From IMG/VR virus record IMGVR_UViG_3300010355_000481: a stretch of 64,000 nt of DNA. The stretch is one strand, 5' to 3'. Below, in pieces: positions 21,288-63,479 of the stretch (the first letter of the stretch is position 1; each line of letters starts with the position of its first letter). Below the pieces are notes generated by a model, which did not search any database, was not told where the DNA came from, and saw nothing but the letters and a program-made list of their open reading frames with translations. This stretch comes from an uncultured virus (IMG/VR IMGVR_UViG_3300010355_000481) (Duplodnaviria > Heunggongvirae > Uroviricota > Caudoviricetes > Crassvirales). Position numbers and translations under genes: made by a program.

Positions 21288-22133
21288 CTACTTACTAGCT
21301 TCTAGTCCTATGGTATTAGGATAAGAATTATCAACCAATCCGATGATAGAACCTAAAAATGATCTACAAATTCCTTTTTTAGAAATGTGTATATGACATT
21401 CAGGTAATGAATGGGTTAACTCTTCTAATTCTGCTTGACAAGAAACTTTACCTAAAACTTGCATAACTACAGTTCTAGTTATAATTCCTAATTTGTGCAT
21501 ACGTCTTAATATTCTACCTCCGCTACTTTCAGACATTCCAAGTAGTCGGGCCATATGAGTTTTTCCAGATACGATGTATTGTTTATTTTTTGTTCGGGCA
21601 CGCTTCATCCAGTCGTCCGTAGTTATACCTAAAGCTGATGCACATTTTGCAACTTTCTTTAAGATACTGTTACGTTTCTTTTCGCTAGTAATTCTGTCAC
21701 CGATTCTATAATAAGCATCTTCTGTATCTTTCCATTTCTCGATACGGTATTGTTGTTGTTTAAAGTTTTTTAATACAAGACTATGTTGTATTTGGTGGTA
21801 TACTTTTTCCCATGTTAAAGGACCATTACATGTAAATCTTTTAAAACATTCAACGTATCTGTTGAACATTAAATTAGCTTCCCCCACGACACCATCATTT
21901 AGTATCGTACAGATATTGCTAAATTTAATTAAACGAATGGCACCTTTAGTTTGAATTAAAGTACCAGCTTTTAAACCACGGGATTTTATGCTTTGAAATC
22001 TTACTAAACCTAAACCTAAAGAAGCTGCAGCTTGATGATCCGTTTGAACACCATACTGCAATATACCATTATTCCTCATTTTAAGGAGGAAAGAGGCGTC
22101 TGTTAGTAATTTAAGTTTTAATAATTGTTGCAT
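21288..22133 (-). CDS. Basic HTH DNA-binding protein (possibly Rep-like); start revised to ATG 22133
   Basis: THMARLLGMSESSGGRILRRMHKLGII looks like a winged HTH; the longer predicted start runs through a terminator hairpin. Confidence 0.5.
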   Translation of the reverse strand: MQQLLKLKLLTDASFLLKMRNNGILQYGVQTDHQAAASLGLGLVRFQSIKSRGLKAGTLIQTKGAIRLIKFSNICTILNDGVVGEANLMFNRYVECFKRFTCNGPLTWEKVYHQIQHSLVLKNFKQQQYRIEKWKDTEDAYYRIGDRITSEKKRNSILKKVAKCASALGITTDDWMKRARTKNKQYIVSGKTHMARLLGMSESSGGRILRRMHKLGIITRTVVMQVLGKVSCQAELEELTHSLPECHIHISKKGICRSFLGSIIGLVDNSYPNTIGLEASK

Positions 22134-22167
22134 AAAAAAAAATCCTGAAGTATAACCTTCAGGATCC
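22134..22167 (-). terminator. Terminator directly upstream of the HTH gene ATG
   Basis: GGATCCTGAAG-GTTATA-CTTCAGGAT followed by a long U-tract. Confidence 0.7.
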
Positions 22168-22310
22168 TTTTTAGCCGAGACAAAATAATAATTGTTAATT
22201 ATTACAAATATAATTCTCTTTGTGGGAGAAATAAAATCTTTTTTAAACATTAACAATTCTATATTTTTGCTGCCTCGGCTAAGAGTAAACTAAGATATAC
22301 TTGTTACAAT

Positions 22311-22342
22311 CAAAGGTAAGTACTGGTATTGTATTTACCAAA
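22311..22342 (-). promoter_or_regulatory. Bacteroidota sigma-A type promoter
   Basis: TTTG-N20-TACCTTTG. Confidence 0.7.
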
Positions 22343-22360
22343 TATTTATTTATTTATTTG

Positions 22361-22450
22361 TGAGAGCAGTAGGAGTCGAACCTACAATCTTTACCATAAA
22401 GGACCTGATTTACAGTCAGGCAGCACAGACGCCATAGTGCTAATACTCCC
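22361..22450 (-). tRNA. tRNA-Tyr(GTA)
   Basis: CCTGA-CTGTAAA-TCAGG anticodon arm; long variable arm; GTTCGA T-loop. Confidence 0.9.
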
Positions 22451-22454
22451 AGAG

Positions 22455-22537
22455 AGGAAAATTGTGGACTCGAACCACAGTCCAATAAAGGACCTACACC
22501 CTTAGCAAGGGATCTCGAACCTATCGATTAACTTTCC
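22455..22537 (-). tRNA. tRNA-Ser(GCT)
   Basis: CCC-TTGCTAA-GGG anticodon arm; long variable arm. Confidence 0.8.
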
Positions 22538-22540
22538 ATG

Positions 22541-22629
22541 AGGTAGAGACAGGGTTCGAACCTGCACATCAGTTTTACCCGACATCACTGTTTTCAAGAC
22601 AGATAAGTACGCCAGCATTACGCTCTACC
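22541..22629 (-). tRNA. tRNA-Ser(TGA)
   Basis: CTGT-CTTGAAA-ACAG anticodon arm; long variable arm. Confidence 0.9.
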
Positions 22630-22633
22630 ATAG

Positions 22634-22715
22634 TGACCCTAGAGAGATTCGAACTCTCAATCCTCGCGGCAAGGGATTTTAAGTCCCTCATGTATCCCAG
22701 TTCCATCATAAGGCC
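22634..22715 (-). tRNA. tRNA-Leu(TAA)
   Basis: AGGGA-CTTAAAA-TCCCT anticodon arm. Confidence 0.9.
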
Positions 22716-22720
22716 AAGTG

Positions 22721-22764
22721 TACTCGTAGAGGGATTCGAACCCCCAAACCTTTCGGCACCGGTT
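22721..22764 (-). pseudogene. 3' half of an interrupted tRNA-Leu
   Basis: Variable arm, T-arm and acceptor strand TACGAGT-A; pairs with the 5' half at 23545-23580. Confidence 0.8.
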
Positions 22765-22765
22765 G

Positions 22766-22852
22766 TAAGAGAAGAGGGATTCGAACCCTCACGCTACTAT
22801 TATTTCGCTTTCGATTCTAAATCGAAATTGTCTACCATTCCAGCATTCTCCC
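22766..22852 (-). tRNA. tRNA-Leu(TAG), overlapping the 3' end of the HNH gene
   Basis: TTCGA-TTTAGAA-TCGAA anticodon arm; complete cloverleaf. Confidence 0.9.
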
Positions 22853-23492
22853 ATGCTTTTATCCATTTTCTAATACAATTATCAGATACCCCATATTCCT
22901 TACCTGTACCCACAAACCCTAACGAATTTATCTTTACTTTCAACACATCTAAACTTGGTCTATCTACTACTTTCCGTAAGTGGCTTCTACCTATCTTTTT
23001 ATACACCGCCTTTTTCCTTACAACTTTTTCTTTAATAGGTTTATCTTTTTTGAGCCTATCTCTAGTAACACTTGCATGACAATTTGGGCATAATATTTGT
23101 AAGTTACTTAATTCATTATTAAAATGATCACTATCAATATGATCAAGTTCTAATACTATAGGTTTACCTCCCCACTCTGATAAACAACATATCTCACATT
23201 TATATTCTTTGTAACCATCCCTTATTAATCTTTCCCTTAATTTAGCACTACTGGTTGGAAAATCTTTTTTACAGTACTCAAGAGCATCTTTTTTTGTAAA
23301 TTTTTTGTTTTTACGCCACCCTTGACCTAAAAAATAATCAGGGGTTTCTATTCCAAAAAATTTAGCTCTTCTAGTTAAATGAGACTGACTACCAGTCCTA
23401 GGGCGAATATTTAGTTTTCTACATACATCCGCCCACGATTTAGAACCAATTAAAGCCTTTTCTATTATTTCCTTTGTATATTTAATCTTCAT
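22800..23492 (-). CDS. HNH homing endonuclease
   Basis: CEIC...LELDHIDSDHFNNELSNLQILCPNCH; N- and C-terminal HTH-like segments. Confidence 0.9.
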   Translation of the reverse strand: MKIKYTKEIIEKALIGSKSWADVCRKLNIRPRTGSQSHLTRRAKFFGIETPDYFLGQGWRKNKKFTKKDALEYCKKDFPTSSAKLRERLIRDGYKEYKCEICCLSEWGGKPIVLELDHIDSDHFNNELSNLQILCPNCHASVTRDRLKKDKPIKEKVVRKKAVYKKIGRSHLRKVVDRPSLDVLKVKINSLGFVGTGKEYGVSDNCIRKWIKAWENAGMVDNFDLESKAK

Positions 23493-23544
23493 ACTAGTAT
23501 AGGTTATAATTTAAGATACAACATCTATACTAGAATCCAAAACA

Positions 23545-23580
23545 TAAAACTATCGTGTAGACCAATTCCACCATACGAGC
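23545..23580 (-). pseudogene. 5' half of the interrupted tRNA-Leu
   Basis: GCTCGTA-TGGTGGAATTGGTCTACACG-ATAGT-TTTA, broken at the anticodon. Confidence 0.8.
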
Positions 23581-23612
23581 AAAAAAAAATCCCCATCTGG
23601 AAAGACGGGGAC
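23581..23612 (-). terminator. Attenuator terminator of tRNA operon 1
   Basis: GTCCCCGTCT-TTCC-AGATGGGGAT plus U-tract abutting the first tRNA. Confidence 0.85.
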
Positions 23613-23638
23613 TAAAAATGCAAAATTAATATACATAG

Positions 23639-23701
23639 CTATCCCAGTCGATCCAATAGGCTCGATAACAGATAACTATATGACAAACGAAAATTCTTCA
23701 T
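23639..23701 (-). CDS. Leader peptide 1 MKNFRLSYSYLLSSLLDRLG
   Basis: 11 consecutive Leu/Ser/Tyr codons; lies between promoter and terminator. Confidence 0.85.
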   Translation of the reverse strand: MKNFRLSYSYLLSSLLDRLG

Positions 23702-23707
23702 TACAAT

Positions 23708-23739
23708 CAAAGATAGGTTACTCATTTTAAACTACCAAA
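23708..23739 (-). promoter_or_regulatory. Promoter of tRNA operon 1
   Basis: TTTG-N20-TATCTTTG. Confidence 0.75.
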
Positions 23740-23757
23740 TATTTCTTTACTTTTTTG

Positions 23758-23828
23758 TGGATACTGTTGGATTCGAACCAAATACTATCTCATTGCAAGT
23801 GAGAAGTGCTACCATCGCATCAGCCTCA
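23758..23828 (-). tRNA. tRNA-Ala(TGC)
   Basis: TCTCA-CTTGCAA-TGAGA anticodon arm; imperfect acceptor stem. Confidence 0.75.
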
Positions 23829-23832
23829 TGTG

Positions 23833-23905
23833 TAGGATTACCTGGATTTGAACCAGGAACGCTTGAGTATCAGTCAAGTATAATAACCAATTTTAATATA
23901 ATCCT
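23833..23905 (-). tRNA. tRNA-Ile(GAT)
   Basis: CTTGA-CTGATAC-TCAAG anticodon arm. Confidence 0.85.
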
Positions 23906-23910
23906 AAATG

Positions 23911-23984
23911 TTGATCCTCAGAGTCTCGAACTCTGTACCTCGCGATTATGAGTCGCACGCTCTAACCGGATGAGCTAAGGATCG
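23911..23984 (-). tRNA. tRNA with CAT anticodon, probably Ile2 (lysidine)
   Basis: GCGA-CTCATAA-TCGC arm and D-arm resemble bacterial tRNA-Ile2; C1:A72 mismatch leaves fMet possible. Confidence 0.75.
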
Positions 23985-23989
23985 ATATG

Positions 23990-24060
23990 CAGTCTATACG
24001 AGACTCGAACTCGTTTCCCCACCGTGACAAGGTGAGAGGATACCCATACCCCAATAGACT
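23990..24060 (-). tRNA. tRNA-Asp(GTC)
   Basis: TCACC-TTGTCAC-GGTGG anticodon arm. Confidence 0.85.
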
Positions 24061-24067
24061 ATTTTTG

Positions 24068-24139
24068 TACTCCTAACGGGAATCGAACCCGTGTCTGCTC
24101 ATGGAAAGTGAGCTATCCTAACCGCTAGAAGATAGGAGC
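24068..24139 (-). tRNA. tRNA-Glu(TTC)
   Basis: GCTCA-CTTTCCA-TGAGC anticodon arm. Confidence 0.9.
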
Positions 24140-24144
24140 AAATG

Positions 24145-24215
24145 TGCAGTATGTAGGAGTCAAACCTACGCAACTTGATTGGAAGTCAAGGGTGCTATCG
24201 TAACACTTATACTGC
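24145..24215 (-). tRNA. tRNA-Gly(TCC)
   Basis: CTTGA-CTTCCAA-TCAAG anticodon arm. Confidence 0.85.
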
Positions 24216-24280
24216 ATGTATATGTAATCACATATAAATTGATAGTTTATACTATTTTTATATGTAAAAACATATGATTG

Positions 24281-24362
24281 TAGCGGGGGTCCGATTCGAA
24301 CGGACGTCTTTTATTTTTCCAGGTTATGAGTCTGGTGACCTCAACCACTAGTCCACCCCGCC
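24281..24362 (-). tRNA. tRNA-Met(CAT) with enlarged A-rich variable loop
   Basis: CCAGA-CTCATAA-CCTGG anticodon arm; acceptor GGCGGGG/CCCCGCT. Confidence 0.8.
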
Positions 24363-24365
24363 ATG

Positions 24366-24439
24366 CGGACAACGTAGGGCTCGAACCTACTATCCTCTGT
24401 TTAACAAACAGCCGCTTATACCACTTAAGCTTCTCGTCC
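24366..24439 (-). tRNA. tRNA-Asn(GTT)
   Basis: CTGT-TTGTTAA-ACAG anticodon arm. Confidence 0.85.
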
Positions 24440-24449
24440 AGTATTTTTG

Positions 24450-24522
24450 CAGATCTGCAGGGATTCAAACCCTGATAAACTCCTTAGAACGAAGTTGTCC
24501 TATTCAGTTAAACGACAGATCT
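24450..24522 (-). tRNA. tRNA-Arg(TCT)
   Basis: ACTTC-GTTCTAA-GGAGT anticodon arm. Confidence 0.85.
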
Positions 24523-24528
24523 ATGTTG

Positions 24529-24601
24529 TTGGATGACAGAGAATCGAACTCTGGACTCCTCCTTGTAAGGGAGGGATGATTAACCACTTCACCATCTTCC
24601 A
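24529..24601 (-). tRNA. tRNA-Val(TAC)
   Basis: CCTCC-CTTACAA-GGAGG anticodon arm. Confidence 0.85.
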
Positions 24602-24610
24602 ATATTTTTG

Positions 24611-24683
24611 TACCCCTGCCGAGAGTCGAACTCGGCCCCACGGATTAAAAGTCCGTTGCCTACTACCAGTTTGCTACAAGGGT
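24611..24683 (-). tRNA. tRNA-Lys(TTT)
   Basis: ACGGA-CTTTTAA-TCCGT anticodon arm. Confidence 0.9.
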
Positions 24684-24689
24684 AAAAAT

Positions 24690-24721
24690 AAAAAACCCCG
24701 GTAGCTATCTGGCTCCGGGGT
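24690..24721 (-). terminator. Attenuator terminator of tRNA operon 2
   Basis: ACCCCGGAGC-CAGATA-GCTACCGGGGT plus U-tract. Confidence 0.85.
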
Positions 24722-24743
24722 CTTCTAAAAGTTTTATATACAC

Positions 24744-24809
24744 TTAGACATAAATAGACCCGGAGCCAGACTTCTCATCTGCCACTCTCCCGATAATATT
24801 TATGATCAT
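24744..24809 (-). CDS. Leader peptide 2 MIINIIGRVADEKSGSGSIYV (alternative GTG start at 24821)
   Basis: First 13 codons use exactly the ten amino acids of the downstream tRNAs. Confidence 0.85.
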   Translation of the reverse strand: MIINIIGRVADEKSGSGSIYV

Positions 24810-24839
24810 TATTTGTTGCACTATTTAAATTTTATGTTA

Positions 24840-24847
24840 CAAATGTA
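24840..24847 (-). promoter_or_regulatory. Promoter (-7 box) of tRNA operon 2
   Basis: TACATTTG. Confidence 0.6.
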
Positions 24848-24903
24848 ACGCTGTTTATAATTCAAGTTACATCTTTATTTGATAATAACAAATTTTTTGC
24901 TAA

Positions 24904-25104
24904 TTATTTTTTAAATTTCTTTTCGTAGACTTCTATCATCTTATTATGATAATTTAATAACCCAGTTTCATTAGTAATATTTCCATTAGGTATTCTGAAT
25001 TTATTTTTATCAATCTTTTTTACAAAAATATCTGATTCAGTTAAACCAGTAGTAATCAATACACTATTTACTGTTTTCTTTAATTTCTCTATACTTATAT
25101 TCAT
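24904..25104 (-). CDS. Hypothetical protein between tRNA operons
   Basis: 66 aa; own TATCTTTG box just upstream. Confidence 0.55.
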   Translation of the reverse strand: MNISIEKLKKTVNSVLITTGLTESDIFVKKIDKNKFRIPNGNITNETGLLNYHNKMIEVYEKKFKK

Positions 25105-25133
25105 AATGCAAAGATAAGTCTTTTATTTTAAAG

Positions 25134-25206
25134 TTTTCCAGACAGGACTCGAACCTGTACCCTCGAATCCGTAGTCCGAGATCCTATCCAATTAAACGAC
25201 AGGAAA
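25134..25206 (-). tRNA. tRNA-Arg(ACG)
   Basis: TCGGA-CTACGGA-TTCGA anticodon arm. Confidence 0.85.
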
Positions 25207-25212
25207 ATATAG

Positions 25213-25284
25213 AGTGACTAGCCGGGCTCGAACCGGTCGATAACTACCCCACAAGTAGTCGTGTTACCACTACACTATAGCCAC
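25213..25284 (-). tRNA. tRNA-His(GTG)
   Basis: ACTAC-TTGTGGG-GTAGT anticodon arm. Confidence 0.9.
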
Positions 25285-25286
25285 GG

Positions 25287-25357
25287 TTTTCCCACCTAGA
25301 TTCGAACTAGGAAATTCAGCTCCAAAAACTGACGTGTTACCGTTACACTATGAGAAA
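25287..25357 (-). tRNA. tRNA-Gln(TTG)
   Basis: TCAGT-TTTTGGA-GCTGA anticodon arm. Confidence 0.9.
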
Positions 25358-25362
25358 ATAAG

Positions 25363-25436
25363 AGCTTCTTTACAGACTCGAACTGTATCTATTCCTGATT
25401 ACAAGTCAGGTGCTGCACCATATCAGCATAAGAAGC
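25363..25436 (-). tRNA. tRNA-Thr(TGT)
   Basis: CCTGA-CTTGTAA-TCAGG anticodon arm. Confidence 0.9.
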
Positions 25437-25471
25437 AAAATTGTTTACCTCATCAATAAGGTAAACATTTG

Positions 25472-25548
25472 TGGTACAGACTGGATTCGAACCAGTACAA
25501 ATTTCCCAGGGCTTCAACCTAGAGCTCTACCGTTGGAGCTACTGCACC
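25472..25548 (-). tRNA. tRNA-Phe(GAA)
   Basis: CTAGG-TTGAAGC-CCTGG anticodon arm. Confidence 0.9.
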
Positions 25549-25553
25549 ATAAG

Positions 25554-25629
25554 AGACCGGAACCAGAATCGAACTGGCATTAAATAGGATTTGCAGTTCT
25601 ATGCCTTTTCCAATATTGGCTATCCGATC
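25554..25629 (-). tRNA. tRNA-Cys(GCA)
   Basis: TAGAA-CTGCAAA-TCCTA anticodon arm; U discriminator. Confidence 0.85.
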
Positions 25630-25633
25630 ATTG

Positions 25634-25704
25634 CGTGACGACAGGGATTCGAACCCCGATCAATGGTTTTGGAGACCACCATGCTACCGTTGCACCACCT
25701 TCAC
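25634..25704 (-). tRNA. tRNA-Trp(CCA)
   Basis: GTGGT-CTCCAAA-ACCAT anticodon arm. Confidence 0.9.
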
Positions 25705-25708
25705 AAGT

Positions 25709-25791
25709 CAAGCCAGGTTAGGTCATTACTCCTAATTTTTTACCTTAATCGGTACTGAGGATGTACTAGTATCTTTCCTCCCCTCCAGCTT
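25709..25791 (-). ncRNA. tRNA-sized cloverleaf-like RNA of unknown type
   Basis: Closing stem plus three hairpins; occupies a slot in the tRNA array; no canonical T-loop or anticodon loop. Confidence 0.45.
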
Positions 25792-25793
25792 TG

Positions 25794-25866
25794 TCTACAT
25801 GACCCGATTCGAACAGGCGAAAACTTGGTCCCAAACCAAGTGGATTAACCCCTCTCCCACATGTAG
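25794..25866 (-). tRNA. tRNA-Pro(TGG)
   Basis: CTTGG-TTTGGGA-CCAAG anticodon arm. Confidence 0.9.
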
Positions 25867-25871
25867 AAAAT

Positions 25872-25898
25872 AAAAAACCCTCCGTATTCGGGAGGGTT
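25872..25898 (-). terminator. Attenuator terminator of tRNA operon 3
   Basis: AACCCTCC-CGAATAC-GGAGGGTT plus U-tract. Confidence 0.85.
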
Positions 25899-25920
25899 CA
25901 GTTTAGTAATTATATGATAA

Positions 25921-25992
25921 CTACACTACATAACCCTCCAGCTTGGTAAACCAAGGTTGTTGAGGACATGTATGTGTGCGATTTGTTTTCAT
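25921..25992 (-). CDS. Leader peptide 3 MKTNRTHTCPQQPWFTKLEGYVV
   Basis: 12 consecutive codons using exactly R,T,H,C,P,Q,W,F, the downstream tRNA set. Confidence 0.85.
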   Translation of the reverse strand: MKTNRTHTCPQQPWFTKLEGYVV

Positions 25993-26031
25993 AAATTATA
26001 ATAAGCTTTAGATTTGCATCTAGCCTACAAT

Positions 26032-26062
26032 CAAAGATAAGTCAAGTTTTTATATTTCCAAA
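26032..26062 (-). promoter_or_regulatory. Promoter of tRNA operon 3
   Basis: TTTG-N19-TATCTTTG. Confidence 0.75.
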
Positions 26063-26135
26063 TATTTGTCCAGTTTTTTTCTAAATAAACTGGACATTTC
26101 TTTTGCGATAAGTATCGTAAAGTGATACATAACGC

Positions 26136-26163
26136 AAAAAAAGTCCCCCAAGAATGGAGGACT
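26136..26163 (-). terminator. Terminator of the structural operon
   Basis: AGTCCTCCATTCTTGGGGACTTTTTTT. Confidence 0.7.
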
Positions 26164-26209
26164 CTAAACTCACTTTAAACCAATAAAGAGGGAGTTTTAA
26201 CCAATAAGA

Positions 26210-26329
26210 TTAAGCCGCTTTTTTCATACGTGGTAATTGCGACCATTTAATGCTACAACCTCTACGTGGACAGCCAGTCGAAGCTTTAGTACGAGGTTTT
26301 GTTATTTTAAATAAGGTTTTCTTTTTCAT
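26210..26329 (-). CDS. Small basic protein (39 aa), absent from the ORF track
   Basis: MKKKTLFKITKPRTKASTGCPRRGCSIKWSQLPRMKKAA; fills the gap between fibre gene and terminator. Confidence 0.55.
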   Translation of the reverse strand: MKKKTLFKITKPRTKASTGCPRRGCSIKWSQLPRMKKAA

Positions 26330-26340
26330 ATTATATATTT

Positions 26341-28797
26341 TTATATTAAATCAATTGTTACACCTTCGAAACTGATATAGATATTTCTAGTAGTATTTAC
26401 ACTAGACATCATTACTCCAGTATGCGTTTCGTTTGTATCATCACGGTATGAAGTATAGTTTCTTTCTAATTGGAATACCGTACCTGCTTTTTTCAAGTTA
26501 AAATTAACGTGAGTATTAACCGAATCATTGATTACGACAGAAGAATAACTATACACTCCATGGCGTTGATAAATAGAATCTTTTAAACCGTAGTTAGCAT
26601 TACTACTCGGTAATGGGTATCCACATAATGATAAACCAGTTGCGTTGAATATATCATCTACGATAGTAGCTTCTGCAAAAGCAGCTGAAACAGAACCTAA
26701 CACGACGATCGATGGCCCAGAAGAGAAATCTTTATATACCCCACCTCTAAACTTCAATTTATTATTTTCTACGATATATTCTAAACCATCAGGTAACCAA
26801 GCATTTTGTAAAATACCAGAAGGTACCGCTTGGTATGAAGTACATGCAGTTGGTACATAACCCAATGTAGTTGTGTATACTGCAGAAACCCCAGTAGTTA
26901 ACAAAGAGCATTGTCTTGTGACTTGGATATTTAAAGTATGAGGGATCTTCGTACCGAAGAAAGGCATCGATACTACTGTCTTAGCGAAAGTAGGGTTATA
27001 CGTTGATACTAAGGCGATAACATGTGCAGGATTTCCAGATACGTTTGTATAATCTACTTTTACCGAAACCATATCATCATCGTTGGCGCCTAACCAACCA
27101 ACTAATAGGTTTGTATCATCTCCGTCATTTTGGATAACAAAACTAATTTCAGGAGCAGTTACTGTAGCACAAGGGTTTGTACTTTGTAATTTAAGATCTA
27201 TTAAACCACAATCGGTACCACTTGGATCCTGAACAATAGATATGCTATTATCAGAAGAAGTAAAGTGAATATCTTCGGAAGGGTTTAACATAATTGAAGC
27301 CCATTCGCCATCACCGTTAGTACATTTTGCACGAACACGTGCACCTAAAATATCACAAGAAATACTAGGGAAAGCCGTCATATTATATTTAAGTATACCA
27401 GAAGCTACACTTACATAATTAGCATCACCATTTATCCATGTTAATGGTGAACCGGTAGTACCTCTAAATTCAACTTCATAATCGGTATTAATACTTGTAT
27501 GACCAGAAAATTCAAATATAAAGTTAGTCCCATCATTGTAAAGACGTAAACCGTACGCAAGTAAAGGAGATTGTACAAATACTCCCCCGTCGGTACCAGC
27601 TTGTGCAGCATTACAAGTATCTGTCGAATATGAAACAGGGCTACTTGGTACATATAAACCATTACCTGTATTCACCAAAATATTACCGCCAGTAAGTGTA
27701 TCTATATTTACATCGGCTTTAATACCTGCAGCATCACTTGATAAAGTAACGGAAGAAGTATTTTGGAAAATAACATCAGATTTAATGATATTACCTGGAA
27801 GGATAGTCATGTTTACAGTATCAGTATCTGATATCGAAACAGCACCAGAAGCCATCGGTACGTACAACCCAGTCGGCAATACTTGTAAGGCATTCGTACC
27901 CGATGGATCAAGTATAACTTGAGATGACAAATTATATCCACCTAATATAGGCGTTAAAGTATGACCTACTGATGGGCTATTTGCCGTAGTAAGTAATGTA
28001 TTTCCAGAAGGGCAACATCCGATGTTTATACCATTAGGGCCGTAAGTAATTGGCGCAGCACTTGCAGGGTCAAATCTAACTTGAGCACTTACTTGATAAT
28101 TATTACCTGAAGGAGTTACTGTTATATCGACTGAAGAAGTATCTAAACCAGAAACTGTAGTTGCAGGACCAGAAGTTGTTGGTGGTGCAACATATAAACC
28201 ATTAGGTCCAACTTGGATAGCATTACCAGGAGTTGTATCTATTTTAACAAGAGATTGGACTGAATATCCACCTACTGTAGGAAGCACGGTAGTATCTACT
28301 GTATTTGTATCGATACCTACTAATGTTGTACTTGCCGTAGACGGTGATGGACATGCCATATATAAACCATCTGACAAAATTTGTAAACAGTTATTAGAAG
28401 TAGCTGACAATCTTACGGCTGCAACTAATTGTTCATTTAGGCCGACATTTGTATTAAGGATACTGACAGAACTGCTACCTACAATCTTATCACTTAGGTA
28501 GCCTGATGTACTATCAGATGCAGAAGCTTTTACCCTAATATCGGTAGCTGTTACGACGATATTTCCACAAAGTTTTTGTGCGAAGCTTTCAAATACATCT
28601 GTAAATGAAGTCCCTTTTAAAATAGTATCGGCACAAACCGTTAAATCTTTCGATAAAAATAAACAATCACCCCAGTTAGGGTGTAAACATCCTGTAGTAC
28701 AAGGAGTTGGAGGGCAAGGTTGTGGGTTACAATTACAAGGACAAGGCGTACCACAAGGGTCTGGGCAGCATTTATTACAAGTTGTGTGGTGAGACAT
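26341..28797 (-). CDS. Fibre/spike structural protein
   Basis: 818 aa; Cys/Pro-rich N-terminus; repeated N(A/C)(L/I)QxxxxGLY units. Confidence 0.65.
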   Translation of the reverse strand: MSHHTTCNKCCPDPCGTPCPCNCNPQPCPPTPCTTGCLHPNWGDCLFLSKDLTVCADTILKGTSFTDVFESFAQKLCGNIVVTATDIRVKASASDSTSGYLSDKIVGSSSVSILNTNVGLNEQLVAAVRLSATSNNCLQILSDGLYMACPSPSTASTTLVGIDTNTVDTTVLPTVGGYSVQSLVKIDTTPGNAIQVGPNGLYVAPPTTSGPATTVSGLDTSSVDITVTPSGNNYQVSAQVRFDPASAAPITYGPNGINIGCCPSGNTLLTTANSPSVGHTLTPILGGYNLSSQVILDPSGTNALQVLPTGLYVPMASGAVSISDTDTVNMTILPGNIIKSDVIFQNTSSVTLSSDAAGIKADVNIDTLTGGNILVNTGNGLYVPSSPVSYSTDTCNAAQAGTDGGVFVQSPLLAYGLRLYNDGTNFIFEFSGHTSINTDYEVEFRGTTGSPLTWINGDANYVSVASGILKYNMTAFPSISCDILGARVRAKCTNGDGEWASIMLNPSEDIHFTSSDNSISIVQDPSGTDCGLIDLKLQSTNPCATVTAPEISFVIQNDGDDTNLLVGWLGANDDDMVSVKVDYTNVSGNPAHVIALVSTYNPTFAKTVVSMPFFGTKIPHTLNIQVTRQCSLLTTGVSAVYTTTLGYVPTACTSYQAVPSGILQNAWLPDGLEYIVENNKLKFRGGVYKDFSSGPSIVVLGSVSAAFAEATIVDDIFNATGLSLCGYPLPSSNANYGLKDSIYQRHGVYSYSSVVINDSVNTHVNFNLKKAGTVFQLERNYTSYRDDTNETHTGVMMSSVNTTRNIYISFEGVTIDLI

Positions 28798-34028: not shown

Positions 34029-35987
34029 TTAGTAATCAATTTGATTGATACGTGGGCGAACGGTTACCCCATTACTACCAAACATAGCATTCAAGTATGT
34101 TTCGAAAGTTGAAGTATCGATACCTTCTTTTACGATGATCGGAATCTCGTAAGTTTCAGGATTCTGCATGTTACCAGGGAAGTTGTTACCTCTATATTGT
34201 TTGTACTTAACGTAGTAAACATTGTAGAAAGCATTTCTATCGATGATATATGCTAAACTTGTTTCCAAAATCTCACGTAAACGTGGATCAGTATCGAAAG
34301 CAGCTTGGTATAAGTAAGCAGCAAGGTTAATGTACTCACGACGTGCCCACTCACCATCTTGGTTCTTTTGGATAGCATCTTGAATCTTACGAGCTTTTAC
34401 TTGTGCCTTACATGGTTCGCCATCTTCTTCTACTTCCCAAACTTCCATCATCGTTGGTTTGTAAGTGAAGTAATCTTCAGGAACCCAAGAACATTCATCA
34501 AACTTAGTATAGTTTGAACTTACTTCGAAACGGATACCACAAGCATTAGGCTGTGTAGGAACTGCTTCAGCTTCGCAAGGACAATCTGACCACAATGTAT
34601 TTTCGAAAGGCTTGATAGCTGGGAATTCAGGATTTGGTTCAGTTAAGCAACCATCTTCCATACATCCGCTATATTGTTCGATTTCGTAAACATCTTCGCA
34701 ATTCCCGGCAGTTTTTAATACTACAGATCCTGGAACAATGTTCAAGTCACCAACATAAGCTGCTTGGATATCAGCTAAACGATTAGCACCACCACAATCT
34801 TTACCTAAGATCATACATTTCTTCTGAGTTGTGATATAACGATCACCACATTTTACCCAAGCGATTGGATCAGCAGCAGTAGTAGGAGTACACATTGCAG
34901 GAACATGAGTGATGCTCAAAATAAGATCAGCTAATTCTGCAACTAATGTGTTAGTAGGTAATGTGAACTCTACTGTAATACCAGCTACACTGTGTGTAAG
35001 ATATTTAGGAGAAGTACCACCATAAGAAGAAGCAATATTTGTAGCAGCCACTAATTGTAAAGCAGGAGAAGTTAAATCTTCTGTACCAGCTAATGGGCGA
35101 GTTACTACATATTTGTATCCTTCAGGAACCAAAGTATACCCAGATCCACAAGTACCACAAGCAGCAAGTAATACACTAGCAGTAGGAACATAGTCCGCAA
35201 CTACAGTAGCATTAGGCATACAACCGGTTTGGTAAGTTGATAAACTACCTTCACGTGCGATACGTGATATAGCCATACCAGGATACTGACGTTGGATAGC
35301 GTTCATAGACTCTTGGTCACCGTTATCACATACTGTCAAACACATTAATTTGTGAGTAGCAGGGTGAACAGGGATAGCAGGTAGAACTACTTCGGCACGG
35401 ATGAATCGAGAAATCTCTACGTCCTTATTGATAGCATCTACCAATTTCTTCGTATAGTTACGACAGTGTACGGTGTTGTCAGGACAACCTCCGGCACATT
35501 CATCAGAATCACAACATGCAGTTGTAACACTTACGTCACGTAAGATTTGTTTTGTGAATTCGTTGTAAACACCTTCACCGTAGATACGGAATCTGAACTT
35601 ATGTGTTTTACCACATTCGAAACGAAGTGTGTTACAAGGGTCTGCAGGATCACTTAGACCGTCCCAACCAATAATCCATTTCTCATTTTGAGATTGACGG
35701 AATGGAGAGAACTCGACGTGCATAACATCTTTTGGTAAGAAGTCTGCAGTCTTCAATGACTTTTTCAAACCAGTGTAGAATTTACCTAAAGCATCTTTTT
35801 TGTGGTAAGATCCTTGGGCAAAACGCACTGGAGCGTGCATATTAATGTTTGCTGGCGCTACAGCATTTCCGCTTTTGGCATCAAATACTCCGATGATACC
35901 TGGCATTAAGTCTTTAGTGTGACCTGTAGACGTAAACCCGGCATAAACGAGCATGGGATGGTCCAATACATGAAATTTGTTATTCAT
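34029..35987 (-). CDS. Abundant structural protein (auxiliary capsid/decoration candidate)
   Basis: 652 aa; codon usage resembles the capsid gene; followed by a terminator. Confidence 0.55.
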   Translation of the reverse strand: MNNKFHVLDHPMLVYAGFTSTGHTKDLMPGIIGVFDAKSGNAVAPANINMHAPVRFAQGSYHKKDALGKFYTGLKKSLKTADFLPKDVMHVEFSPFRQSQNEKWIIGWDGLSDPADPCNTLRFECGKTHKFRFRIYGEGVYNEFTKQILRDVSVTTACCDSDECAGGCPDNTVHCRNYTKKLVDAINKDVEISRFIRAEVVLPAIPVHPATHKLMCLTVCDNGDQESMNAIQRQYPGMAISRIAREGSLSTYQTGCMPNATVVADYVPTASVLLAACGTCGSGYTLVPEGYKYVVTRPLAGTEDLTSPALQLVAATNIASSYGGTSPKYLTHSVAGITVEFTLPTNTLVAELADLILSITHVPAMCTPTTAADPIAWVKCGDRYITTQKKCMILGKDCGGANRLADIQAAYVGDLNIVPGSVVLKTAGNCEDVYEIEQYSGCMEDGCLTEPNPEFPAIKPFENTLWSDCPCEAEAVPTQPNACGIRFEVSSNYTKFDECSWVPEDYFTYKPTMMEVWEVEEDGEPCKAQVKARKIQDAIQKNQDGEWARREYINLAAYLYQAAFDTDPRLREILETSLAYIIDRNAFYNVYYVKYKQYRGNNFPGNMQNPETYEIPIIVKEGIDTSTFETYLNAMFGSNGVTVRPRINQIDY

Positions 35988-36705: not shown

Positions 36706-37821
36706 TTAATACTTATTCCATTTTTGTTGTACTGCAGTAAGTAATGCAACTACTTCTTCTTGATGTTGGAATTTCATCAATTCTTCTACTAATTTTTCCT
36801 TATCCTTCGTTTTGAAGTTATAGGTTGTTTCGTTAGAAACAAATTGATTATCTTTATTCGTAGTAATGTTACCGTAAAAGATAGCATCATTAACAAGAGC
36901 AATTGTACGTCCACGTTTTTGGTTAGACTTGAATGATTCGACAGTTTCGATGAATTTCTTTGGGGCCTGTTTCTTCTGACCTTGTGTGTAATCTCCTTGG
37001 ATATATCTACGCAAAGCTTTATATATAATATCTTTAGGCGTATTAAATGTTACCCCTTCGTTTGAAGTGATCAACATCTTGTGTAAGAAGAACATTGTTT
37101 CGGCGCCACGCCCAGATTCGTCAATTTCAGATAACAAGCGAACAGCTTTATCTCTAATTTTTTCTGAATCATCATAGACTTCATACGTTAAATGAGGTTC
37201 TTCTAAATAGAAACGATAGTTTGTTTTTAAAAGATCATCAGGTGATGCTGCAATATATGGATATCCTCCTCCTTTAATATTCCAATAAGTAAGAAGATTA
37301 TCGGGATTCTCTAAATCCAACACTGTTTCCTCGTCGACGATAGCAAGTCTTTGTTTCTTCCAGAAAGGTTGATTAAATGGATCATTTACCTCTGGACCAA
37401 AGTTTTCTTCTAATATTACAAGACTTTCTTTGAGGAATTCAACTTCCCAAGCTTGCTTATAATCTCCTTCTTTTAAACCTGTTTTGAAGAAATTTTTTCC
37501 GCCACGTTCGATAGCGGCCAATTCCATTTCTCTCGAAAAACCGCCAGGATATAAATCCACGCCAAGTTCCGCAGCCTTAGTCTTATCAGAGTAATTCTCG
37601 GAAGCATTATGACGGATAGTTACATAACGACTTCTTTTCTTAGTTGTCGGCGTACCTGTAGCTGTTAATACTTCTTCTTCCTTGTTAGGATAAAGATTGT
37701 CAAAGATCGATTCCTCCATTGGTTCGTCGATATGACCGGCATTAGGGTTTGCCTTAATTTCTTTAGTTTCAGCTTTTGCTGGAGCAGCTTTAGAAGCTAC
37801 TGATGGTTTTACTTCTGACAT
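36706..37821 (-). CDS. Conserved crAss-like protein following the major capsid gene
   Basis: 371 aa; FW...LDLENPDNLL motif; gene order. Confidence 0.55.
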   Translation of the reverse strand: MSEVKPSVASKAAPAKAETKEIKANPNAGHIDEPMEESIFDNLYPNKEEEVLTATGTPTTKKRSRYVTIRHNASENYSDKTKAAELGVDLYPGGFSREMELAAIERGGKNFFKTGLKEGDYKQAWEVEFLKESLVILEENFGPEVNDPFNQPFWKKQRLAIVDEETVLDLENPDNLLTYWNIKGGGYPYIAASPDDLLKTNYRFYLEEPHLTYEVYDDSEKIRDKAVRLLSEIDESGRGAETMFFLHKMLITSNEGVTFNTPKDIIYKALRRYIQGDYTQGQKKQAPKKFIETVESFKSNQKRGRTIALVNDAIFYGNITTNKDNQFVSNETTYNFKTKDKEKLVEELMKFQHQEEVVALLTAVQQKWNKY

Positions 37822-37957: not shown

Positions 37958-39655
37958 TTACATTAAGTTACCGAATGGCTTACCTGTTTTAGGATTGTAA
38001 GGTAAGAATACTAATACTTGAGTAGGATCTTTTACCCAGATACTACCAACTGGCTTACGTAAGAAGGCTCCGAATCCAGAAGTATGTGTTGAAGCGATGT
38101 GGCTATAAGCTGCACCTCCGTCCATAAATCCTGCAGAACTCTTACCATACATCGGATGGCTATCAGTACCGTTGATCACATAGTGACGAACTTTAGGGTT
38201 TGATCTACGAATCAAGAAGATATTATCTTTTTTCGTATTGATGTTGTAAGCGATGTAAGAGAAACTTGACAATCTCCAAGTACCATAAGGTGAACTTACC
38301 ATCGGGTTATCTAATTCAGAAGCGTTCCATGTGTTATCAAATGCAGGGTTGTATTTGATATTTACTTGGTAAACCCCCGGAATAGTCCAACCTGTGAACA
38401 ATGTAGCATTAGCTTTCAAGTTTGTAGACTTACCTTGTAAGAATCCAAATTCTTGGTTTTGTAATACCACCGTAGAACCGAATCCAGAGTTTTGGTATTT
38501 AGCTTGGATAGCATGAGATGCTTGTAACATACCTGCCCATCCTGTTTCTAATTCGATAGAAGGTTCGCTACCTACAGTTGTTAAGTCACGACGACCTAAG
38601 ATGTAGTTTTGTAAACCAGTTTCGATGATACCGATATCAAATCCGTAGATATTGTAAGGGTTAACGTAACCAGACTTTAATTGGAACCATAAACCTGTAG
38701 GTAATTGAATTTCTTCTTGACCATCATATTGTTTAACAGATCCACCTGGAGACCACATCAACATTTGAGACTCATCGTTATGAAGAATACCGTAAGAAAT
38801 ATCATCCATTAAATAAGCGAATGCACCAGAAGCTTGACCGCTACCCAAAGCAGCTTTCATTTGATCCATAGTCATATCAGACTTGGCGCTATTTAAATCA
38901 GGTACAGTTGGATCTGGAACATCACTTACACGGAAGTATTCTTTTACTTTAGTGTAGTAGTTTTTCAAAGTGATTGCTGCAGTAGAACTACCGTCGGCAA
39001 ATTGACAAACTTTGTCAGATAACCAGTAGTGTGAGTTTACTTCGGCGTTAGACACTTTAATGATGTATTCTTTAGCAGAATTCAATCCTTTAAATTTCCA
39101 TGGCGTCCATTCTTGACCATACTCTGGAGAACGTAAACTACCGAAACGACCTAATGGTTGATTTGGTTGTAAGTATTCTTTTGGTACAGATGTCATGCTC
39201 GTAGCAATCAACTGAACAGTAATGATGAAGTTAGTACCGGCAGCACGAACTTGATCAGGAGCTACTAATAAAGCAAATTCCGAGAACTGAGAAGGTTTCA
39301 AGATAGTACCAGGACCGAAAGCGTCACTGTCAACCATCAATTCAAACTTACTGTCATCAGCACCCGGATAGTCAGTATTAGATAAATCTTTTACAATACG
39401 GATAAGGTTGTCTGTTTTTACAGGCACCTTGTAGCGCAATAGGTTACCATCGTGTTCGATGATATTGTTCGTGTCAAAGTCACTCCATTTAAACAAAGGA
39501 AGTTCAGATTTCATGGCTTGTGACCAGAATGTGATTAGACCCAGATCTTTAATATTGTCTGATTCATTTAATCGGGAAGCCAGATTCGTCATGTTAAGAT
39601 GCGACTGGGCATCCTTTAGTTGAGTCTGACGATAAAAAATACCGTATGGATTCAT
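37958..39655 (-). CDS. Major capsid protein
   Basis: 565 aa; portal-scaffold-capsid order; strong codon bias; C-terminal SIWVKDPTQV motif. Confidence 0.85.
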   Translation of the reverse strand: MNPYGIFYRQTQLKDAQSHLNMTNLASRLNESDNIKDLGLITFWSQAMKSELPLFKWSDFDTNNIIEHDGNLLRYKVPVKTDNLIRIVKDLSNTDYPGADDSKFELMVDSDAFGPGTILKPSQFSEFALLVAPDQVRAAGTNFIITVQLIATSMTSVPKEYLQPNQPLGRFGSLRSPEYGQEWTPWKFKGLNSAKEYIIKVSNAEVNSHYWLSDKVCQFADGSSTAAITLKNYYTKVKEYFRVSDVPDPTVPDLNSAKSDMTMDQMKAALGSGQASGAFAYLMDDISYGILHNDESQMLMWSPGGSVKQYDGQEEIQLPTGLWFQLKSGYVNPYNIYGFDIGIIETGLQNYILGRRDLTTVGSEPSIELETGWAGMLQASHAIQAKYQNSGFGSTVVLQNQEFGFLQGKSTNLKANATLFTGWTIPGVYQVNIKYNPAFDNTWNASELDNPMVSSPYGTWRLSSFSYIAYNINTKKDNIFLIRRSNPKVRHYVINGTDSHPMYGKSSAGFMDGGAAYSHIASTHTSGFGAFLRKPVGSIWVKDPTQVLVFLPYNPKTGKPFGNLM

Positions 39656-51382: not shown

Positions 51383-52266
51383 TATTGTTGTTGATAAGGG
51401 GCCTCTTCGGGGGCTACTTATCTTCTTATACAGCACATTAACGGCGTAAATGCTCATAATTATACAGTAAACCGTTGAATATCAGGGTATTATGTCAAAA
51501 TATCAACCTCGGGAGTATACCAAACAGTAAACATTGATTTTTGTACTCTTACACAAATTGAACAGAACCCTTGATAGGCTTGAATCGTCAAAAATAGGGG
51601 TACTAACGTACCTAAATTGAGGTAATTATATAACTAATTGAATATCAATACATTATGAAAGAGATAGATATATGGTATATCTTATGCAATAAGCTAGAGA
51701 AGGTAAAATGTAGACCATATATGGTAGAATTACCAGTAAGGAGAGAAATAACTAAGCGAATTGAGATAGAAATGCTCGGTAATATAGGCTTAATTCACCA
51801 AAATATATACAGAAATGTGTCTTGAAAGGGGCTAAAAGTGGCCCTCTGAGGTAGGTAGAGAAGATTAAAACCCTTGATAGGAGCGTATTTGATATACCTC
51901 AGTTCAAAAAAAGTTGCATCAACACAATGAGGTAATTGGTAATATGTGAATAGATGAATTATCTTATATTCTATTCTCTTTATCTCTCTTATAGTTCTTT
52001 ATACAGATGCTGATAAGATCTACAGTCGTTAACCTTTAAACCAATAATATGAAACGAATAAAATTCTCTCTCTATCAGTATATGAATAAATATAAAGGAT
52101 ATACTCATAGATCTGAATATAACCATATTAGTGATATACTATACGAATATTCATATGTTGGTATTATATACTATGATGTAATTATAGTTCCTAAATTTCG
52201 TAAGATATAATAAGATCCACAGTCGTCAAACAATTAATCATTAATCAACAACAAAACAATATTATC

Positions 52267-59665: not shown

Positions 59666-59803
59666 TAGGTTATAGCTGAACTGGTTAGAGCATAGCTTCA
59701 AGTGAACGTTGACGATAGTGGTAAAAGACGACAATATCCTGTTCTGGTAGCTATCCAATCAGAAGTACAATGATTGGTGAGGGTTCGAATCCCTCTAACT
59801 TAA
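59666..59803 (+). ncRNA. tRNA-like RNA with enlarged anticodon loop
   Basis: Acceptor, D-arm, variable arm and GGGTTCGAATCCC T-arm present; about 46 extra nt in the anticodon loop. Confidence 0.65.
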
Positions 59804-63049: not shown

Positions 63050-63479
63050 ACAAAAAAGGTTATGTTTTTTAACATAAACCTTAATTGAAGACACTCTACC
63101 AACTCACCGGAGCCACTGAGGCTGTATATAGTCAAATAGTCCAAAACTACATACATTTAACTTTGCTTCCATGATATCTATAACACCTTGATTTTATCGC
63201 CTATTTATAGGCATGGGGAGGGGGATTTATAGGTTTATGTCACCATCTTCGGTTGTCTTATCCATCCTTCGAGATAATTTACCCGGTAAGACTACATTCT
63301 GCTTATTTTCTTCGCCAGAATTGCGCCAGACCACTTCCTAATGTGTTAAACACAAAAAAGCCAGGCATTACACCTGGCTCTTATGTTTTCCAGGTGGAGA
63401 GACTCACCTGAAAATATCGTCGAAGAAAAACTCTTACTATATTAACTGTAAGAGTCTCTCTTTCTTACAATCAAAGGTA
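63050..63479 (-). ncRNA. Candidate antisense-oriented structured ncRNA locus
   Basis: TTTG-N19-TACCTTTG promoter (-7 box 63472-63479); several hairpins; two terminator-like structures; no ORF in the track. Confidence 0.45.

Follow-up and report, generated by a model that had tools for sequence, protein, structure and literature searches.

The 64,000-nucleotide stretch of viral DNA analysed here (IMG/VR record IMGVR_UViG_3300010355_000481, Crassvirales; referred to below as the window) carries an array of transfer RNA (tRNA) genes in three blocks, each of which lies behind a small open reading frame (ORF) and an intrinsic terminator. The window is phage DNA and encodes a portal protein (PHROG 6547), a large terminase (TerL; PHROG 6681) and a major head protein. 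The identity of this TerL to those of crAss-like phages of Bacteroidota is only 22-28% among the matches listed. DNA of the window was found in activated-sludge and wastewater sequencing runs.

tRNA blocks, leader ORFs and terminators

With default settings, ARAGORN called 21 tRNA genes between 22360 and 25866, every one of them on the minus strand. The slightly relaxed setting -ps90 added Ala-TGC (23757-23828), Gly-TCC (24144-24215) and Asn-GTT (24365-24439) and yielded the 24 minus-strand tRNAs in three blocks that had been reported in an earlier note made from the sequence. Twenty tRNAs pass the gathering score of Rfam, the additional Gly and Asn genes included. Ser-TGA and Tyr (tRNA-Sec-like matches) and Ala (26.6 bits, cut-off 29) are below this threshold, and ARAGORN is the sole caller of Ser-GCT. 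The blocks are composed as follows:

25133-25866 (-), tRNA block A: Pro-TGG, Trp-CCA, Cys-GCA, Phe-GAA, Thr-TGT, Gln-TTG, His-GTG, Arg-ACG (8)
23757-24683 (-), tRNA block B: Lys-TTT, Val-TAC, Arg-TCT, Asn-GTT, Met-CAT, Gly-TCC, Glu-TTC, Asp-GTC, Met-CAT, Ile-GAT, Ala-TGC (11)
22360-22852 (-), tRNA block C: Leu-TAG, Leu-TAA, Ser-TGA, Ser-GCT, Tyr-GTA (5)

All three blocks show the layout of promoter, leader, terminator and tRNAs described in the earlier note. Its promoter motif TAnnTTTG is exact in units A and C and is replaced by a weaker variant in unit B. In combination with an upstream TTTG, we take TAnnTTTG to be the Bacteroidota promoter consensus. Promoters A and C have AAATATTTGG in common, located 19-20 nucleotides (nt) upstream of the match to TAnnTTTGATTGTA, and promoter A displays extended similarity to the promoters of unit C, of a site at 63479 and of unit D (22347-22125, minus strand), a fourth unit with the same promoter class and without a codon-matched ORF. 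The leader ORFs, identified by ORF scan and translation, possess start and stop codons and begin 0-32 nt after the predicted transcript start. The elements of the three units are:

26026-26067 (-), promoter A: AAATATTTGG (TTTG at -33) and TATCTTTGATTGTA (TAnnTTTG at -7), exact match to the pattern TAnnTTTGATTGTA at 26039-26026
25921-25992 (-), leader ORF A: 23 codons, MKTNRTHTCPQQPWFTKLEGYVV
25945-25980 (-), codon run A: leader codons 5-16, RTHTCPQQPWFT, exactly the set {R,T,H,C,P,Q,W,F} of the 8 block A tRNAs
25931-25940 (-), putative antiterminator strand A: leader codons 18-21, containing GGAGGGTT; duplex with the 5' arm of the terminator -14.0 kcal/mol, 1/1000 shuffles
25868-25899 (-), intrinsic terminator A: 9-bp stem, 7-nt loop, T tract
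24831-24856 (-), promoter B, uncertain: variant TAACTTGAATTATAA and/or TACATTTG, read from the sequence
24744-24809 (-), leader ORF B: 21 codons, MIINIIGRVADEKSGSGSIYV
24771-24809 (-), codon run B: leader codons 1-13, MIINIIGRVADEK, exactly the set {M,I,N,G,R,V,A,D,E,K} of the 11 block B tRNAs
24755-24771 (-), putative antiterminator strand B: leader codons 13-19, TCTGGCTCCGGG; duplex with the 5' arm of the terminator -29.1 kcal/mol, 0/1000 shuffles
24686-24727 (-), intrinsic terminator B: GC-rich hairpin with bulged stem, T tract
23702-23744 (-), promoter C: AAATATTTGG followed by TATCTTTGATTGTA, exact match to the pattern TAnnTTTGATTGTA at 23715-23702
23639-23701 (-), leader ORF C: 20 codons, MKNFRLSYSYLLSSLLDRLG
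23654-23686 (-), codon run C: leader codons 6-16, LSYSYLLSSLL, the set {L,S,Y} of the 5 block C tRNAs
23640-23650 (-), putative antiterminator strand C: leader codons 18-21, GACTGGGA; duplex with the 5' arm of the terminator -12.3 kcal/mol, 32/1000 shuffles
23579-23613 (-), intrinsic terminator C: 11-bp stem, T9

Each leader contains an uninterrupted run of codons for the amino acids of the tRNAs behind its own terminator. Twelve codons in run A cover 8/8 amino-acid types, 13 codons in run B cover 10/10 and 11 codons in run C cover 3/3, in agreement with the 11-13 matching codons of the earlier note. When a leader was tested against the wrong block, the longest run was at most 3. The chance of such a run in a peptide of the same length, estimated analytically from the amino-acid frequencies of the window, amounts to 6e-8 for A, 4e-5 for B and 1.4e-7 for C. 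In the six-frame translation of the window (8,275 stop-to-stop segments, 119,727 residues), runs A and B are the only ones that cover their full set. Run C has one rival of 11 residues in CT-rich, low-complexity sequence at 51955 on the plus strand, and the next longest L/S/Y run comprises 7 residues. The rival lies in a 19-codon ORF (51955-52014, plus strand, MNYLIFYSLYLSYSSLYRC), which is followed by neither a terminator nor a tRNA.

The match extends to the anticodons. In run A, nine codons are strictly wobble-readable by the tRNAs of the block and three (CCT twice and ACC) via four-box reading by U34. Twelve codons of run B are strictly readable, and its ATA is readable only if one of the CAT tRNAs is of the Ile2 (lysidine) type. 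All 11 codons of run C (TTA/TTG, CTA/CTG, TCA/TCG, AGT/AGC and two TAT) are strictly wobble-readable, which corresponds to 2-3 codons per block C tRNA. The union of the three runs comprises 20 amino acids, as claimed previously; the label of a 20-amino-acid sensor is slightly overstated because Met is represented by start codons alone.

The GC-rich terminator hairpins are located 17-25 nt beyond each leader stop codon and ahead of the tRNA genes, at 25899-25875 (A), about 24727-24689 (B) and 23613-23588 (C). Terminator B was not listed by a simple hairpin scan because its stem has a bulge. Complementarity between the 3' end of the leader and the 5' arm of the terminator, another claim of the earlier note, was recovered in all three units with the duplex energies listed above, where the shuffle figures give the number of 1000 shuffled leaders that reach the observed energy. 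In the minimum free energy (MFE) fold, every unit consists of a hairpin within the leader, formed by the run and the strand after it, and the terminator. The former resembles the 1:2 hairpin of the trp leader.

The influence of a stalled ribosome was modelled for the three window units by forbidding pairing from -15 to +11 nt around each A-site codon. At equilibrium, the probability of the terminator in unit A decreased from 0.74 without a ribosome to 0.02-0.27 for stalls at R5-Q12, and in unit B from 0.99 to 0-0.35 for stalls at M1-A10. In unit C, it decreased for stalls at S7-S14 from 0.94 to 0-0.21 when the stem was assigned automatically, which included only a 3-bp outer stem, and from 0.83 to 0-0.75 when the hairpin was set by hand. 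In a model of the nascent RNA, the last stall that allowed upstream pairing of the terminator 5' arm was F15 in A, K13 in B and S14 in C; beyond these positions, the pairing was lost or halved. Since the probability of the terminator returns to the baseline beyond the run in all three units, the run ends coincide with the positions at which a ribosome would start to cover the antiterminator strand.

Leaders and tRNAs in other phages

Short ORFs upstream of tRNA blocks were scanned in other phage genomes for comparison. Cellulophaga phage phi38:1 (NC_021796.1), a podovirus that is not related to the window phage, has the same three-unit design, with a repeated promoter and a terminator in each unit:

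phi38:1 unit 1: leader MKTIMNIATDIRTKGVK..., tRNAs Lys Ile Gly Met Asp Thr Val Arg-TCT Ile-TAT
phi38:1 unit 2: leader MKTNMTYNNFSWYSNCSFSSYN..., tRNAs Tyr Ser Ser Asn Trp Phe Cys
phi38:1 unit 3: leader MNVTLLHQEPLEQLRLP..., tRNAs Pro Glu Gln His Leu Arg-ACG

The three phi38:1 terminators lie near 35390-35420, 36885-36920 and 38100-38140 of NC_021796.1. By chance, a run of this kind would be expected with a probability of 8e-10 in unit 2 and 3e-7 in unit 3. Homologous units are present in Cellulophaga phages Calle_1 and phi4:1 (NC_021788.1) and in Maribacter phage Panino (PP540027.1). Several of the leaders of these marine phages are annotated as hypothetical proteins in their records.

Covariation of leaders and tRNAs in other phages, which the earlier note had named as a test of its own claim, was found in these four cultured marine phages. 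They partition the amino acids into {P,E,Q,H,L,R}, {A,K,I,G,M,D,T,V,R} and {Y,S,N,W,F,C}, whereas the partition in the window phage is {P,W,C,F,T,Q,H,R}, {K,V,R,N,M,G,E,D,I,A} and {L,S,Y}. For each of the seven re-partitioned amino acids (E, L, T, N, W, F, C), the codons occur in the leader run of the new block and are absent from the other leader (7/7). Among the 144 run codons of 12 units from 5 phages, 122 are strictly wobble-readable by the tRNAs of the block and 14 via U34 four-box reading; three of the remaining codons are ATA with a CAT or TAT tRNA, and five are unreadable. The Arg codon box tracks the Arg anticodon of the block (CGN with ACG, AGA with TCT) in every unit with an Arg tRNA (7/7).

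When phi4:1 is compared with Panino, the run shows four synonymous changes, no non-synonymous change and one codon indel. A 1-nt indel directly after the run shifts the reading frame, and the bases TATCGGGAGG are kept. Synonymous changes within the run and frame-independent conservation of TATCGGGAGG indicate selection on codons within the run and on the RNA sequence beyond it. The antiterminator strand is located directly 3' of the run in 11/11 units examined, which come from four phage lineages, and its pairing with the terminator 5' arm is better than that of shuffled leaders (at most 36/1000) in 9/11 units. An equilibrium switch as in the window units was clear in unit 1 of phi38:1.

Three tRNA cassettes, Pro-Glu-Gln-His-Leu-Leu-Arg, Ala-Lys-Ile-Gly-Met-Asp-Thr-Val-Arg and Tyr-Ser-Ser-Asn-Trp-Phe-Cys, recur together with leaders in phi38:1, Panino and phi4:1 (L002, L006 and L007). 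Their presence in phages of different families infecting marine Flavobacteriia suggests that whole regulated units are exchanged horizontally. In one low-depth contig of wastewater run X3, position 23701 is joined to 22256 via 45 other letters. This relative of the window phage is devoid of leader C, terminator C, the homing-endonuclease (HNH) gene described below, five tRNAs and promoter D, all together. The joint absence is weak evidence that unit C behaves as a gain/loss cassette bounded by the repeated promoters.

Closer relatives were scarce. A search with the 818-amino-acid (aa) and 278-aa proteins encoded next to the tRNA region retrieved none among viral contigs, and the promoter pattern gave 0 loci in the same set. 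Among metagenome contigs, the promoter pattern matched 19 loci, three of which (L019-L021) represent the same phage and have identical units; the remaining 16/19 were discarded as chance matches, 14 of them without any tRNA genes. Likewise, a back-translated LHQELEQP pattern matched six viral contigs, all by chance and without tRNAs. A blastn comparison of the tRNA region with named phages returned only similarities to single tRNAs or HNH genes.

Proposed mechanism and alternative explanations

With a probability of about three in four, each tRNA block appears to be controlled by a ribosome-mediated transcription attenuator that would sense the decoding speed of codons read by the block's own tRNAs. 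The tRNA set is probably made only when ribosomes read the matching codons slowly. Leader-peptide attenuation of the individual tRNA blocks, the central claim of the earlier note, passed all computational tests (run statistics, antiterminator position, stall window and covariation). Sequence anatomy, statistics, alternative pairings in silico and cross-phage covariation were computed here; we infer from them that the leaders are translated, that ribosome and polymerase are coupled, that read-through depends on stalling and that a physiological trigger exists.

According to this model, host RNA polymerase would start at the TAnnTTTG promoter, and a ribosome would begin translation of the leader of 20-23 codons. 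Fast decoding of the run would bring the ribosome to the last third of the leader and the stop codon, where it would cover the antiterminator strand. The terminator hairpin would then form and transcription would halt ahead of the tRNA genes. If any one tRNA of the run were scarce or uncharged, the ribosome would stall inside the run and break the 1:2 hairpin of the leader, which would allow the antiterminator strand to pair with the 5' arm of the terminator. The resulting read-through would produce the whole block. Accumulating phage tRNAs would speed up decoding of the leader and shut the block off again; such a loop would be self-limiting because the phage tRNAs read the run codons themselves. 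The net effect would be an OR-gated negative feedback that matches tRNA supply to decoding demand by anticodon box, not merely by amino acid. Homeostatic supply matched to demand fits the same hardware as a trigger by defence or starvation.

Several observations weigh against the attenuator. Promoter B is a weaker match than promoters A and C, and no Shine-Dalgarno sequence precedes the leader ORFs. Leader C starts at or within a few bases of the predicted 5' end of its transcript; the messenger RNA would be leaderless or nearly so because promoter C ends one base before the ATG. The equilibrium model predicts poor sensing of stalls on the final 1-3 run codons (T16 in A, D11-K13 in B, L15-L16 in C). 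According to the nascent-RNA model, the antiterminator of units A and B can form even without any ribosome, for which reason the default state of these two units without translation would rest on kinetics. For units 2 and 3 of phi38:1, the equilibrium model favours the terminator at every stall position, and stall-dependent pairing appears in the nascent model only. The antiterminator pairing is no better than that of shuffled leaders in unit A of phi4:1 (461/1000) and of Panino (468/1000). The latter unit also contains AGA codons, yet no Arg-TCT tRNA was detected there. The five unreadable codons are CTA and CTT in unit 3 of both phi38:1 and Calle_1 and an AGA at the edge of a Calle_1 run. 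Finally, the gut crAss-like phages cr3_1 and cr111_1 (24 tRNAs) yielded no comparable leaders in the same scan, and the TerL relative L001 (68% identity) is a 38.7-kilobase contig without tRNAs. The result for cr3_1 and cr111_1 also implies that the scan does not give such matches trivially and that the design is not universal.

Two degenerate tRNA-like genes, which are not annotated, were noticed in phi38:1 (L002:4901-4977 and L002:8021-8100); judged by their anticodon loops, they would be Ala-TGC and Leu-TAG. Such Ala-TGC-like and Leu-TAG-like genes would account for GCG in leader u1 and for CTA/CTT in leader u3 of this phage.

The same attenuator might have been selected for counter-defence, sensing the loss of host tRNAs through cleavage by anticodon nucleases (PrrC, RloC, PARIS AriB, retron effectors) and inducing nuclease-resistant phage copies. 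The resolution by anticodon box would suit the detection of a single cleaved tRNA species, the sensor spans all 20 amino acids, and there are reports that infection blocked by defences against tRNAs can be rescued by phage tRNAs (PMC10264068, PMC11464382, PMC11555353). We regard this explanation as possible and rather doubtful: the units are not linked to a defence system in the window or in related loci, late protein synthesis demand or host shut-off would trip the same switch, and the regulation of phage tRNA genes is unmentioned in the available portions of PMC10264068 and of the other phage-tRNA literature found.

It is improbable that the terminators are overcome by a processive antiterminator of the phage or by a timed polymerase switch, with the short ORFs not acting as sensors. 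Such a mechanism draws on unit D (22318 to 22133) and on the element at 63479-63345, in which the same promoter class and a terminator occur without a codon-matched ORF and which make units of promoter plus terminator a general habit of the window phage. It leaves unexplained the match of codons and tRNAs and its covariation across phages, as well as the complementary strand right after the run and the frame-independent conservation of this strand.

Still less likely is the view that the terminators merely end the preceding block or gene and that the small ORFs are incidental. Blocks A, B and C indeed have no terminator of their own after the last tRNA, and the next hairpin downstream is the terminator of the next unit. 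However, the structural gene upstream of unit A has its own terminator (26165-26140), so that terminator A is not required to end the upstream operon. Furthermore, a strong promoter 100-150 nt upstream of each terminator would be wasteful unless regulated, and the chance estimates for the runs range from 4e-5 to 6e-8. Direct, ribosome-free binding of tRNA anticodons to the codon run (T-box- or sponge-like), which would take advantage of the cognate codons displayed for each block tRNA, is hardly credible, given that the leaders match neither the T-box nor any other Rfam family, that the runs are situated in ORFs with start and stop codons in 11/11 units (12 leader ORFs including Calle_1 u3), that the run tolerates synonymous changes and that single-codon contacts without a T-box scaffold are not known to be stable.

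The attenuator proposed here is best compared with known leader-controlled systems. Enterobacterial leaders may be multivalent, as in thrL (Thr and Ile) or ilvL of ilvGMEDA (Ile, Leu and Val); others are trpL, hisL, pheL and leuL. Like the window units, the leaders of amino-acid operons consist of a short ORF close to the promoter, with regulatory codons, and of an intrinsic terminator ahead of the genes under control, and have alternative 1:2, 2:3 and 3:4 hairpins, among which a stalled ribosome frees the antiterminator (in the window units, in silico). They regulate biosynthetic enzymes, whereas the window units would regulate tRNA genes, and they sample 1-3 amino acids in long repeats, compared with 3-10 amino acids, 1-5 times each, in the window units. 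Further differences are that the codons of the window units match the anticodon boxes of the regulated tRNAs, that the product would feed back on the sensor and that the units are encoded by a phage. None of the Rfam amino-acid leader families (Trp, His, Thr, Leu, Phe) reaches the gathering score in the window; the sole leader match, Phe_leader (26.9 bits, cut-off 55), is located at 26135-26208 on the terminator of the upstream gene, outside the three leaders.

In E. coli, the pheM leader attenuator controls pheST, which encodes phenylalanyl-tRNA synthetase. As proposed for the window units, a component of the translation apparatus is attenuated in this case rather than a biosynthetic pathway; unlike them, pheM senses one amino acid and governs a protein-coding operon of a cell, not of a virus. 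As the window units are proposed to do, T-box riboswitches sense the state of a specific tRNA with a codon-like specifier and flip between terminator and antiterminator. They bind the tRNA directly without a ribosome and possess conserved Stem I and T-box motifs, whereas the elements of the window are ORFs. The T-box covariance model gave no match at E values up to 1 in 21800-26600 and none at the gathering score in the entire window. In mycobacteria, leaderless poly-Cys short ORFs are described as attenuators in the available part of a preprint (bioRxiv 10.1101/834739). As far as this part describes them, they share with the proposed function of leader C that a short ORF located close to or directly at the 5' end of the transcript acts as a codon-specific sensor, and differ from it in responding to a single amino acid, in controlling protein-coding operons and in belonging to another phylum.

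The best-supported description of the window units is classical ribosome-mediated attenuation with a new target, tRNA genes. Genes for tRNAs are known to be regulated via the promoter (growth rate, stringent response). Attenuation, to our knowledge, has the status of a textbook mechanism in amino-acid and synthetase operons only. In the full-text literature searched, with subscription journals and supplements outside its scope, no account of attenuation ahead of tRNA genes was found, nor does one appear in the available portions of the phi38:1 transcriptome paper (PMC5335546) and of PMC10264068.

A classical switch wired to tRNA genes, the product of which decodes its own sensor, would constitute a simple homeostat for decoding capacity. 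It would provide a direct, testable answer to the question of how and when phage tRNA arrays are expressed, and it predicts block-specific induction by defined stresses. Experimental systems are ready, because the same units occur in cultured Cellulophaga and Maribacter phages and infection RNA sequencing already exists for phi38:1. At present, the leaders are either recorded as hypothetical proteins or lack any annotation, and the compact units of 150 nt could serve as codon-specific reporters of translation stress. More speculatively, and with the odds against it, phages of several unrelated lineages might possess an anticodon-resolved decoding sensor for 20 amino acids, the first known tRNA genes under leader-peptide attenuation, and perhaps an inducible replacement of host tRNAs depleted by defence nucleases, host shut-off or codon demand. 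If this were true, the 50-year-old question of why phages carry tRNAs would be recast as one of regulated, on-demand supply.

Neighbouring genes and further elements of the window

Two further genes, which the earlier note does not mention, are located within the tRNA region:

22800-23492 (-), HNH homing-endonuclease gene: PHROG 10822, E value 3.9e-43, resembling the homing endonucleases of the T5/BF23 tRNA regions
24904-25104 (-), 66-codon ORF, function unassigned: between block A and unit B, with the promoter-like site TATCTTTG ahead (element 24904-25113)

The HNH gene is inserted between terminator C and the tRNAs of block C. Together with tRNA-Leu(TAG), it is flanked by tRNA-like fragments at about 23575-23545 and at 22765-22716 (both on the minus strand). 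Inspected by eye, the acceptor ends of the fragments are complementary, which would fit an older type-II tRNA gene split by the endonuclease cassette; ARAGORN, run with introns permitted, called no split or intron-containing tRNA around the HNH gene. For the 66-codon ORF, PHROG and Pfam gave no family. An AT-rich 11-bp hairpin (25467-25442, minus strand) in the gap between tRNA-Phe and tRNA-Thr of block A may be a processing or pause site.

In unit D, a long-range hairpin (about 22281-22168) is followed by a strong terminator (22165-22133) and directly by the ATG of the 278-aa protein, which shows a weak helix-turn-helix match. An upstream ATG at 22250 is in frame with the gene of this protein through the terminator. 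Unit D may represent a different kind of attenuator. At 63479-63345 (minus strand), the same promoter precedes an RNA about 120 nt long that forms three strong hairpins, including a terminator at the end (MFE -49.9 kcal/mol, z -6.98). This RNA contains no ORF, matches no Rfam family and is a candidate for a phage small RNA.

Far from the array and on the opposite strand, Rfam matched a tRNA of 138 nt at 59666-59803 (plus strand, 38.7 bits), which may hold an insertion or intron. In the area of 52008-52230 (plus strand), the repeated motif AAGATC(T/C)ACAGTCGT is located ahead of two small plus-strand ORFs.

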